Shown here: positions 16,022 to 18,370 of the stretch, piece by piece
How positions within the stretch are numbered: the first letter of the stretch is position 1
How the letters are laid out: each line of letters begins with the position of its first letter
DNA from: Promethearchaeota archaeon
Lineage (GTDB): Archaea > Asgardarchaeota > Lokiarchaeia > Sigyniarchaeales > SOKP01
Length of the DNA stretch: 18,627 bases
Direction: 5' to 3'
Assembly: GCA_019058295.1 (NCBI GenBank)
Contig: JAHPZI010000016.1
Coordinates: 39,294-57,920, forward strand
Notes under the pieces: model-generated
What the model was told of the DNA's origin: nothing
Databases searched by the model: none
The model's input: only the letters and a program-made list of their open reading frames with translations
Position numbers and translations under genes: made by a program

Positions 16022-18370
16022 TTAATGTAATAATTGAGCATCACTTGGGCGATATTCTCCAGAACCATTAATTTCATAAGAAATCTCAATTCTCTTTCCT
16101 TCTTCCAATTCTTCAATCGACCACTTTAACGTGTCAGATCCTTTTTCATCTGTTATTTCAGGTTCTAAAGAAAACTCACCATATTCAAAATTATCTGGTA
16201 CTTTATCTAAAATTGTATAATCTTTTAATGGCATGTTGCCAAGATTTTCATATTCAATTACAATTTGATAGCTTCCAAGGGCTCCAATAGGAGTAATTTT
16301 CTTTCCCAATCTGTATTTTCGACGCACATGAACAACTTTAATAATTGGAATTTCCTCTGGTTCAGGTATATACTCTAATTCTTGACCCAATGGATAGGTA
16401 TTTCCATTATATATGACATCTGTAACGAATTCAGAATCTTTTGGAGGATTATCAGCATGGATGGGATATTTGACCTCAATTACCGAATCGGGTTCCAACA
16501 TTCCTATAGGTGAATCCTTTAAATCTGATAAAATAACTTGAACAGAATTGTCATCAATGATAATTTTTTCTGGATCTACATCAATCGGTTTACCATCTTT
16601 AAGTACTTCAACTTCGTCAGGTTCAGGTGGTCGGAATTTATCATCGAAGCGCTTTTGCGTGATTTTTACCTCATTTATTGGGGCACTCCCGTCATTAACA
16701 TATTTCAAAGTATATGGAATATCGCTGTTTTTGTATGATGGCAATAATATAACACCTTCTTCTTCCGTCGGTATTTCAACTTCAGGTTCTTCAATTATTA
16801 CTTCTCCAGTAATACTAGCCAAGACGAGTTCTACATCTTCAATAGCAATAGTACCATTTACATCTGCTTCTATTTCTGAAAATACTCTAAAATATATTTC
16901 TTTTTGAAATGTTGGATAATCATCACTGTAATATTGCCATGAATCTGAATTCCATTGAGCTCCTGCGGGTAATTTAGGACTTATTTCGCCTAAATCTATA
17001 AAATTCTTATCAGGCTCATAAGAAGTATGTATATCTATCTTAAATAAGTCAATCTTAAATTCAGAGGGATTCTCAAAAACTAACCGACAATCCCAGACTC
17101 CAGGTTCTTCATCCCTTTCAACTATATCAATATAATGCTTGTTGTTTGTAAGTCCATCAAAACTCTCGATTTCTAAACCTCCTGTAAAAGAAGAGGATCC
17201 TTTATAGGAAACTTTAATAGTTCCTGTTTTTACTGAATCCTTAGTATCAACTAAAACATCAGCTGTGAATTTAATTAATGCTGTAACTTCAGGATCCAAC
17301 TCTGGAATTGTCCATTTAATTTGACCTTCCTCTAATTCAGCTTCTCCTATTGTTACATCAATAATTTTAATATTTTCAAACTTTTCAGAAATATTCTTTG
17401 TTACTAATATATCACTAATTTCTCTTTCAAATAGACTGTACATACCAATCGCGAAATAAACAGTATTTACTTTATTAATAGAAATTCCAAAAGATTCAAG
17501 TCCATATTCTGCAGCAACATCATATTCTTCATCTTCTTCTTCACTTACCTCTGTCTCTTTTATTAGTTCTATAATTTCGGCTTTTTTAGCACCAGATGGA
17601 ATTTCAATATCATTTTCTTCACAATACTCCTTTAATTCTACAACTGTCCACGAATCATAATCTATTTCCTCTTCTTCCTCAATTTCTTCTTCTACTTCCT
17701 CTTCTAACTCTTCCTCCTCTTCTTCTAGTTCTTCTTCAATCTCTTCTTCTACATCCCCTTCCTCTTCTTCTATTTCTTCTTCTATTTCTTCTTCTATTTC
17801 CTCTTCTAATTCTTCTTCCTCTTCTTCAAGTTCTTCTTCAATCTCCTCTTCTACATCCCCTTCCTCCTCTTCAATCTCTTCTTCTTCCTCTTCTAATTCA
17901 ATAGTTTCTGCTTCTACTCCAATAGCCTCATCTTTTAGCTTTATTAAATCAGATTCAATATCTTTAAGATTCAAAATATTATTTGCATCTGGCATTGTGT
18001 TTATATACTCTTTAACAAAAAGTAGGTTTTGAGCTTCTCCTGTAATTTGAAAATCTCGAGAGTCAACATTATCTTCATCTGTAATGCCCAACTCTTGAAC
18101 CTTTATTTCATTGGATTCCAAATTAACACCTTCAATATCCGTAAGAATAAGGTTAATATCCCATAATCGATCTATTGAACTTGGATTCTCTACATTCAAT
18201 TTCCCGTTAAAACCAATAGCTTTTATATTTGCGTTATGATCTTGCTCAACATTAACTGCTTCATCGATTCTTAATAAAGCGGATAATCCTTCTGTATAGC
18301 CCTCTTTTAATACGATTTCTCCAGTTATCTCACCAATTTCTTCTTCATCTTTTTTATTTTTACGTGCCAT
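16022..18370 (-). CDS. Large acidic beta-sandwich protein: mu-homology-like N-terminal half with inserted poly-Glu tract and SAP/HeH-like module; Ig/DUF11-like C-terminal domains
   Basis: 782-aa ORF with AAGTGA 6 nt upstream and no signal peptide or TM segment. WTVVELKEYCEENDIEIPSGAKKAEIIELI is helix-extension-helix-like; YEN.G..PL....ILDKVP..F...LKWSIEELEEGK...ISY is DUF11-like. Domain assignments are by eye. Confidence 0.75.
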   Translation of the reverse strand: MARKNKKDEEEIGEITGEIVLKEGYTEGLSALLRIDEAVNVEQDHNANIKAIGFNGKLNVENPSSIDRLWDINLILTDIEGVNLESNEIKVQELGITDEDNVDSRDFQITGEAQNLLFVKEYINTMPDANNILNLKDIESDLIKLKDEAIGVEAETIELEEEEEEIEEEEGDVEEEIEEELEEEEEELEEEIEEEIEEEIEEEEGDVEEEIEEELEEEEEELEEEVEEEIEEEEEIDYDSWTVVELKEYCEENDIEIPSGAKKAEIIELIKETEVSEEEDEEYDVAAEYGLESFGISINKVNTVYFAIGMYSLFEREISDILVTKNISEKFENIKIIDVTIGEAELEEGQIKWTIPELDPEVTALIKFTADVLVDTKDSVKTGTIKVSYKGSSSFTGGLEIESFDGLTNNKHYIDIVERDEEPGVWDCRLVFENPSEFKIDLFKIDIHTSYEPDKNFIDLGEISPKLPAGAQWNSDSWQYYSDDYPTFQKEIYFRVFSEIEADVNGTIAIEDVELVLASITGEVIIEEPEVEIPTEEEGVILLPSYKNSDIPYTLKYVNDGSAPINEVKITQKRFDDKFRPPEPDEVEVLKDGKPIDVDPEKIIIDDNSVQVILSDLKDSPIGMLEPDSVIEVKYPIHADNPPKDSEFVTDVIYNGNTYPLGQELEYIPEPEEIPIIKVVHVRRKYRLGKKITPIGALGSYQIVIEYENLGNMPLKDYTILDKVPDNFEYGEFSLEPEITDEKGSDTLKWSIEELEEGKRIEISYEINGSGEYRPSDAQLLH
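17666..17899 (-). repeat. Glu-codon low-complexity tract containing a 102-bp tandem duplication
   Basis: acatcccc at 17751 and 17853; protein unit GDVEEEIEEELEEEEEELEEE(I/V)EEEIEEE occurs twice (34-aa period). Confidence 0.92.

Follow-up and report, generated by a model that had tools for sequence, protein, structure and literature searches.

A cytoplasmic Lokiarchaeial protein with a predicted stand-alone mu-homology domain

In a stretch of 18,627 nucleotides from a Lokiarchaeial genome (the window; contig C16:39294-57920 of a 3.2-Mb assembly that is 79% complete), we examined the minus-strand gene for P0001, a soluble, acidic protein of 782 amino acids (16022..18370, from the list of open reading frames (ORFs) and their translations, with the stop codon at 16022-16024). 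Our structure models indicate that residues 18-124 and 292-512 of this protein together form the two-subdomain, all-beta fold of a mu-homology domain (MHD), and we put the probability that P0001 is a cytoplasmic, stand-alone MHD protein of the Asgard 'Adap_comp_sub' family at about 0.78. In clathrin adaptors, COPI and muniscins, MHDs serve to bind cargo and partners. The family was already listed in 2023, and the present result is a confirmation of that listing, not a discovery.

Predicted fold of the N-terminal region

The case for an MHD is carried by the fold. We built an AlphaFold2 model of P0001 on an alignment of 80 sequences (mean predicted local distance difference test score (pLDDT) 83.7, low only within an acidic insert) and compared it, using VIA-align, with 48,161 PDB chains, one representative per 40%-identity cluster. 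MHDs alone occupied the top of the ranking. AP-2 mu2 matched at Z 16.1, 15.9 and 15.2, with 228 of 252 residues aligned at a root-mean-square deviation (rmsd) of 3.5 A, and mu3A (15.1), mu4 (14.9), bovine delta-COP (14.4), mu1 (14.0), SGIP1 (13.3), yeast delta-COP (13.0) and Syp1 (12.2) followed. All of these alignments cover model residues ~26-512, on both sides of the insert, and begin with model residue 26 placed against mu2 residue 168. Foldseek with the whole P0001 model returned only long proteins with multiple immunoglobulin (Ig)-like domains (PrgB, integrins, ciliary proteins), at template modelling scores (TM) <0.2; because this search was uninformative, we used domain-level searches instead.

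For the domain-level comparison, we folded the equivalent region (residues 24-393) of the ortholog P0007, a protein that shares 60% identity with P0001 where the two align and whose insert has only 38 residues. This trimmed model was predicted with high scores (pLDDT 92.1, predicted TM 0.81). At least the first 45 Foldseek matches to it were all MHDs of AP mu or delta-COP (E ~1e-10, probability 1.00, TM by target 0.6-0.76), and VIA-align placed all ten MHD representatives first (Z 16.4-12.3, 211-228 aligned residues), with the best non-MHD match at Z 10.7 over 129 residues. Across the two models, the leading AP-2 mu2 alignments lie at Z 15.9-16.4 with an rmsd of 3.5-3.6 A. A fold search of the ESM Atlas likewise recovered eukaryotic delta-COP (TM 0.53) and muHD clusters (TM 0.51) over 225-231 residues.

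An MHD is an elongated all-beta domain of ~250-280 residues in which subdomain B is inserted into the chain of subdomain A, and this is the organization that our predicted models show. Matches to single sandwiches span ortholog-model residues ~100-370, indicating that the last strand of the first part pairs with the last part of the domain, as fits an interleaved subdomain A. In P0001, the first part (residues 18-124; 17999..18319, minus strand) comprises seven subdomain A strands with pLDDT 85-93 and includes an invariant NPS..R.W motif. Subdomain B (residues 292-396; 17183..17497, minus strand) is a DUF11-type Ig sandwich, assigned from Pfam matches in relatives and from a family profile alignment. 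The last part (residues 397-512; 16835..17182, minus strand) supplies the return strands that complete subdomain A, together with an archaeal elaboration, and the MHD alignments stop at model residues 511-514. It also holds the strongest motif of the family (P423, W426, C428, F432, N434, S436 and F438), which is invariant both here and in the family of a 709-residue paralog described below.

The sequence-only reading of the window had proposed an MHD for this gene from three segments, quoted as resembling (a) the first MHD strands, (b) subdomain B and (c) a later strand with an S-G motif. All three are present in P0001, at residues 31-60, ~317-372 and 385-404, with segment (a) in the first part and segments (b) and (c) in subdomain B, and all lie on modelled strands: 31-43 and 49-61 for (a); 318-326, 331-339, 343-347, 350-358 and 363-373 for (b); and 385-391 and 400-407 for (c). 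For (b) and (c) the motif likeness goes beyond chance, as the profile comparison with AP-3 mu3A below indicates, whereas (a) is backed only by the structural alignment. The proposed range of 17150-18290 corresponds to residues 27-407 only, and the MHD-matching domain reaches residue ~512 (window position 16835).

The AP structures in our comparison included AP-2 mu2 (9fiw, 7ohz, 2xa7, 1bw8), mu3A (4ikn), mu4 (4mdr) and mu1 (1w63). With these medium-subunit MHDs of AP-1 to AP-4, P0001 shares the same predicted fold (Z 14-16.4, 210-233 aligned residues) and a weak sequence likeness in subdomain B that is seen in both directions. Delta-COP (4o8q, 5fjw) and the muniscins SGIP1, Syp1 and FCHo (5awr, 3g9h) are similarly close in fold (Z 12.2-14.5, 212-218 aligned residues), and the highest identity of any MHD match, 15-18%, is to yeast delta-COP. 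As in muniscins, the MHD of P0001 stands outside any longin fusion: Pfam finds in P0001 neither the N-terminal longin domain of AP mu and delta-COP (Clat_adaptor_s, PF01217) nor an F-BAR domain, and only 17 disordered residues precede the first strand, in line with the sequence-only reading, which had expected neither domain.

The surrounding architecture nevertheless differs from each of these systems. Unlike in AP mu, the MHD of P0001 is N-terminal rather than C-terminal; members of the family carry an acidic insert of 38-205 residues between the subdomains, the last part is ~70 residues longer, and two extra Ig-like domains are present. Nor does P0001 have the layout of a muniscin, in which the MHD is C-terminal and follows an F-BAR or other membrane-binding region, and, unlike muniscins and delta-COP, it lacks an F-BAR or APA region, and no coatomer partner is encoded near it. 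Because it lacks a longin domain, a basic surface and adaptin neighbours, we do not regard P0001 as an ortholog of the AP mu subunit.

Sequence signal for the domain and its limits

We next asked how far sequence comparison supports this assignment. Searching 5.8 billion proteins for relatives of P0001 gave 273 clusters (90% clustering) at E <= 0.001. Among the 120 relatives listed, most are 650-830 residues long, and every named one belongs to Promethearchaeota, Lokiarchaeota or Hodarchaeota. Many have precomputed matches to both Adap_comp_sub (PF00928; profile length 259, gathering score 31.6 bits) and DUF11 (PF01345). When ten of them were rescanned, PF00928 matched at E 1e-5 to 1e-7 (25-31.8 bits), always at profile positions ~122-240 and on a stretch that also matches DUF11 (positions 13-91). 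Across the 80 aligned relatives, PF00928 is found in 42 (E <= 0.01; best 2.9e-10) and DUF11 in 54. The models and these matches together do not describe independent sandwiches devoid of any profile match to an MHD family, which the sequence-only reading had named as the outcome that would speak against it: the structural match runs the full length of the MHD, and about half of the relatives match PF00928.

The source genome also encodes a 709-residue paralog, whose family aligns with that of P0001 at an hhalign probability of 99.7% (E 3.9e-26, 313 columns). On its own, this paralog recovered no MHD among the sequences of solved structures. We combined the two families into a mixed profile (A4) and searched it against 177,635 distinct PDB sequences. 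Only three sequences were returned at E <= 10, all of them AP-3 mu3A (E 0.0014-0.0039) and all through subdomain B. This alignment sets segments (b) and (c) against mu3A residues 279-397, with matched positions for the conserved Gly, the Trp of W-x-I/V and S-G-L-x-V. Against 1.84 billion representative sequences, profile A4 retrieved 595 proteins at E <= 0.001; giant proteins among them match only profile positions ~154-242, in 14-30 repeats.

Several observations weigh against an MHD in P0001. A Pfam scan of the protein itself finds no MHD, returning only a SAP/HeH/Rho_N-type motif at residues 237-272 and weak DUF11-like matches near the C-terminus, and a search of PDB sequences with P0001 alone gave no MHD and no other match. 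Narrower family profiles (A1, A2 and A3) recovered no solved MHD from PDB sequences. The sequence signal that does exist is confined to subdomain B, with none for subdomain A, and identity to known MHDs is 9-18%. The two structure models share one alignment family, and the predictor was trained on solved MHDs. Mu2 is basic and lipid-binding; by net charge, a crude measure, P0001 has no comparable basic phosphoinositide-binding surface, its three MHD parts carrying -14, -6 and -17. No conserved trafficking neighbour of the P0001 clade appears in the window or at the loci of relatives. Finally, the Pfam MHD models are themselves not specific to MHDs, as P0266, a plain DUF11-repeat protein, scores far above the cut-off (a metagenomic protein of 4,419 residues with 30 DUF11 repeats and a legume-lectin domain; 103.7 bits to PF00928 and 169 bits to muHD, PF10291).

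Given such cross-matches from DUF11 repeats, all that the sequence signal shows is that subdomain B belongs to the DUF11-type Ig modules, and it is the predicted three-dimensional arrangement that identifies a complete MHD. Together, these findings confirm the original observation and support its interpretation at the level of predicted fold.

Remaining domains, gene neighbourhood and alternative readings

A short charged tail (residues 1-17; 18320..18370, minus strand) precedes the MHD. Its first ten residues have a pLDDT of 34, and comparison with homolog N-termini and with the clade split in our tree shows that it lacks a Trp-acidic extension of ~45 residues found in a sister clade. Between the first part of the MHD and the insert lies a conserved amphipathic helix (residues 125-150; 17921..17998, minus strand), modelled as helices 129-132 and 135-148. 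An equivalent is kept in the short-insert ortholog model, and T125, A129, L133 and E139 are nearly invariant.

The lineage-variable acidic insert (residues 151-291; 17498..17920, minus strand) sits where subdomains A and B meet and is modelled with low pLDDT except in one small module. It contains 83 Asp or Glu residues (net charge -79), and among 80 relatives its length ranges from 38 to 205 residues between conserved flanks (P0001 residues 126 and 298). Tandem Repeats Finder detects a 102-bp tandem duplication in the poly-Glu tract (17672..17885, minus strand; 2.1 copies, 91% matches), suggesting that the insert has grown recently in this way. The module, a helix-extended-helix of SAP/HeH/Rho_N-like type (residues 237-272; 17555..17662, minus strand), is modelled at pLDDT 92-95. 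Its scores are below the cut-offs in a whole-protein Pfam scan and above them when residues 235-300 are scanned alone (Rho_N 31.1 bits against a cut-off of 24.9, HeH 30.6 against 28.9, Ish1 28.2 against 26.6). Of 121 relatives, 14 have the same module, and these 14 are all long-insert proteins.

C-terminal to the MHD are two further Ig-like domains, rather than the three to four that the sequence-only reading had counted. Residues 517-681 (16328..16822, minus strand) form a third beta-sandwich of pilin-shaft, CnaB-like type, matching pilin domains of RrgB, BcpA and SpaD in VIA-align at Z 13-14 over 136-141 aligned residues. Residues 684-782 (16025..16321, minus strand) form a highly conserved Ig-like domain, with many invariant columns at 683-771, a structural match to 8ose_A (Z 10.3, 94 aligned residues) and a weak DUF11 match (E 0.056). 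Subdomain B and the C-terminal domains are of the same type as DUF11 (PF01345) repeats and pilin-shaft domains. Unlike in the giant proteins that repeat the subdomain-B module 20-30 times, however, P0001 has a single such module set inside another sandwich, and is cytoplasmic with no repeat array.

P0001 is extremely acidic (isoelectric point 4.05, net charge -151), and each of its domains is net negative. In agreement with the expectation of a soluble protein, we found in it no signal peptide and no transmembrane helix: the N-terminus is charged, and the maximum 19-residue hydropathy, 1.6, falls on a modelled strand. The same holds for the 80 full-length relatives: none begins with a hydrophobic stretch or contains a transmembrane segment, and their N-termini are rich in Lys and Glu.

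Between the P0001 gene and the gene upstream lie 157 bp of AT-rich spacer that contains TATA-like runs, in a window that is AT-rich throughout (GC ~0.25-0.41). The genes for P0001, P0015 and P0092 all adjoin one block encoding a GNAT protein, an enoyl-CoA hydratase and a 3-hydroxyacyl-CoA dehydrogenase. In the syntenic relatives P0092 and P0015, a gene of metallo-beta-lactamase fold lies upstream of the MHD gene (L008 4798-5799 and L012 747-1823); the window has none. Directly upstream of the P0001 gene, just beyond the end of the window, are two giant tandem ORFs of 1,401 and 1,262 residues (C16:57820-65728, L003 821..8729, minus strand), which have no Pfam match and no counterpart at the syntenic loci of relatives. 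No adaptin or sigma-type longin is encoded among the window genes or at five relatives' loci, the rest of the genome not having been searched. At one relative's locus, a Robl_LC7 gene lies two genes from the MHD gene. In another Lokiarchaeon, a sister-clade MHD gene adjoins a gene for a BBS7-like propeller (L005). The single BBS7/ITFG2-type beta-propeller of the source genome (C29:7173-8528, L009 1501..3168, plus strand; 555 residues with a C-terminal extension; Beta-prop_BBS7 E 1.3e-23) adjoins no MHD-family gene.

These features bear on other readings of the protein. P0001 could be a string of ordinary DUF11/Ig sandwiches that reached an MHD-like arrangement by convergence and shares neither descent nor action with eukaryotic MHDs. 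The DUF11 matches of 54 of the 80 relatives on subdomain B would be expected in that case, as would giant DUF11-repeat proteins that match the family profile 20-30 times at positions 154-242 and cross-match the Pfam MHD models, and a subdomain A that lacks any sequence-level signal. Look-alikes outside Asgard archaea are a further point in favour of convergence. In a partial test, one ESM Atlas cluster, made up mainly of Thermoplasmatota, reached TM 0.78 over 320 residues (as high as a Thorarchaeota cluster), and profile A4 had one match at E ~1e-38 labelled Korarchaeota, although on a contig of only 2.7 kb. Convergence does not readily account for an unbiased fold search topped by MHDs alone, whose alignments cover 85-90% of the domain at 3-3.6 A and include the discontinuous subdomain A, and no other multi-sandwich protein comes near on the MHD region. 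The DUF11 likeness of subdomain B, moreover, fits equally well an MHD that arose from such a module. We therefore regard convergence as unlikely.

Two further alternatives place the function of P0001 elsewhere. Its pilin-like and DUF11 domains could mark a cell-surface or adhesin-type protein that is exported without a signal peptide: residues 517-681 match the shaft domains of Gram-positive pilins at Z 13-14, DUF11 modules build giant repeat proteins such as the 30-repeat, legume-lectin protein of 4,419 residues, and the gene lies directly downstream of the two giant ORFs. With 0 of 80 full-length relatives having a hydrophobic N-terminus or transmembrane segment, with a poly-Glu tract of ~80 residues and a SAP module that are cytoplasmic features, and with giant neighbours that relatives' syntenic loci lack, export appears highly improbable. 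The lineage could also act mainly through its insert, the SAP/HeH module tethering the scaffold to DNA or RNA as a nucleoid-associated factor with no trafficking-like role. The module is confidently folded in the model, exceeds the SAP, HeH and Rho_N cut-offs as an isolated segment and is kept in 14 long-insert relatives. It is nonetheless missing from most of the family, close orthologs at 70% identity among them, whereas the beta domains are under strong constraint. The module also lies within a tract of net charge -79 that should repel nucleic acid, and no nucleic-acid genes are found nearby, all of which makes a mainly nucleoid-associated role improbable.

Distribution, proposed role and origin

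Profile matches to the MHD region occur in 243 of 301 sampled Asgard genomes, in 76 of the 90 that are of high quality and in 63 of 70 genera; Lokiarchaeial genomes often contain several. A quick tree places P0001 in a clade of 30 members (support 99) apart from a sister clade of 43 (support 98). The two differ at their N-termini, which are short in the P0001 clade and carry the Trp-acidic extension of ~45 residues in most of the sister clade. In most sister-clade proteins (e.g. P0059, P0067 and P0096), a conserved Trp-acidic stretch of ~20 residues follows a Lys-rich start and is absent from the P0001 clade. By analogy, it recalls the short Trp-acidic motifs that bind eukaryotic adaptor domains.

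The source genome has three genes of this family: P0001, a sister-clade copy and the 709-residue paralog. The sister-clade copy, which has the Trp-acidic extension (~C15:107916-110233, L004 917..3234), is read in two frames split by a run of N with duplicated flanks; this break is an assembly gap and not real, and the contig ends ~500 bp past the gene. The paralog (C15:33346-35475, L001 31..2160, minus strand) has no acidic insert and matches PF00928 at 35.9 bits, above the cut-off. It heads a large Lokiarchaeial family of its own (~703 residues).

Adap_comp_sub domains were reported by Eme et al. (2023; Nature 618:992; PMC10307638; Suppl. 4.3.1, Extended Data Fig. 3) as present in most Asgard phyla, sparse and not fused to Clat_adaptor_s, with 44 occurrences of PF00928 in their Suppl. 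Table 3 (Table S3). Judged by eye from the printed rows of that table, the Bin_204 entry starts exactly as does P0067, which matches P0001 residues 290-782 at E 6e-156 and 50% identity. In the portion of the table we compared, the AMARA_7 entry (Lokiarchaeales) shows the family's conserved motifs and an acidic, SAP-like insert by eye, and a near-copy of the 709-residue paralog of the source genome is present as well. By eye, some rows in the same portion (helical Gerdarchaeales entries and one Helarchaeales entry) appear to have no relation to the family and could be DUF11-type cross-matches. The 2023 survey relied on Pfam matches and described a sparse occurrence; our analysis models and matches the two-subdomain fold in full and detects the family in most sampled genomes. 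We found no text in the literature that describes the fold, insert or extra domains of the family. Two recent structure-based Asgard surveys do not mention MHDs in their main text, and a literature search on Asgard MHDs, medium subunits and clathrin adaptors gave nothing relevant.

As to function, P0001 may be a soluble interaction scaffold. The surface of its MHD and the conserved C-terminal sandwiches would bind partner proteins or short peptide motifs, and the poly-Glu/SAP linker, which in this paralog lineage has grown to ~140 residues and carries the SAP/HeH-like module, could flexibly tether nucleic acid or basic proteins. Taken jointly, we rate these steps at somewhat below even odds. 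Because all of its domains carry a net negative charge, P0001 is unlikely to bind acidic membranes directly as mu2 does.

Whether the components of vesicle coats are older than eukaryotes is a question on which MHDs in Asgard archaea have a bearing, as was pointed out in 2023 from Pfam hits. Our analysis adds that the whole two-subdomain fold is predicted, beyond the Pfam match to subdomain B; that the Pfam signal by itself is unreliable, since DUF11 repeats give it too; and that members of the family are common, not sparse, among Asgard genomes, with three paralogs in the source genome. P0001 also departs from mu subunits in lacking a longin domain, in its acidic surface, in the N-terminal position of its MHD and in its additional Ig domains, and for these reasons it should not be taken to imply an AP-like complex.

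More tentatively, the eukaryotic MHD may descend from this archaeal cytoplasmic family, itself born when a DUF11 adhesin-type Ig module entered another beta-sandwich, with the P0001 clade as a separate paralog that took on a second role. We consider this scenario possible but doubtful. Under it, the near-universal presence of the family in Asgard archaea and its look-alikes in Thermoplasmatota would mean that the MHD predates eukaryogenesis and is not Asgard-specific. The P0001 clade would then have lost two features of its sister clade, the Trp-acidic motif at the N-terminus and the neighbouring propeller, and would, in part, have gained a poly-Glu/SAP tether, changes that would point to a second, possibly nucleic-acid-linked, role.

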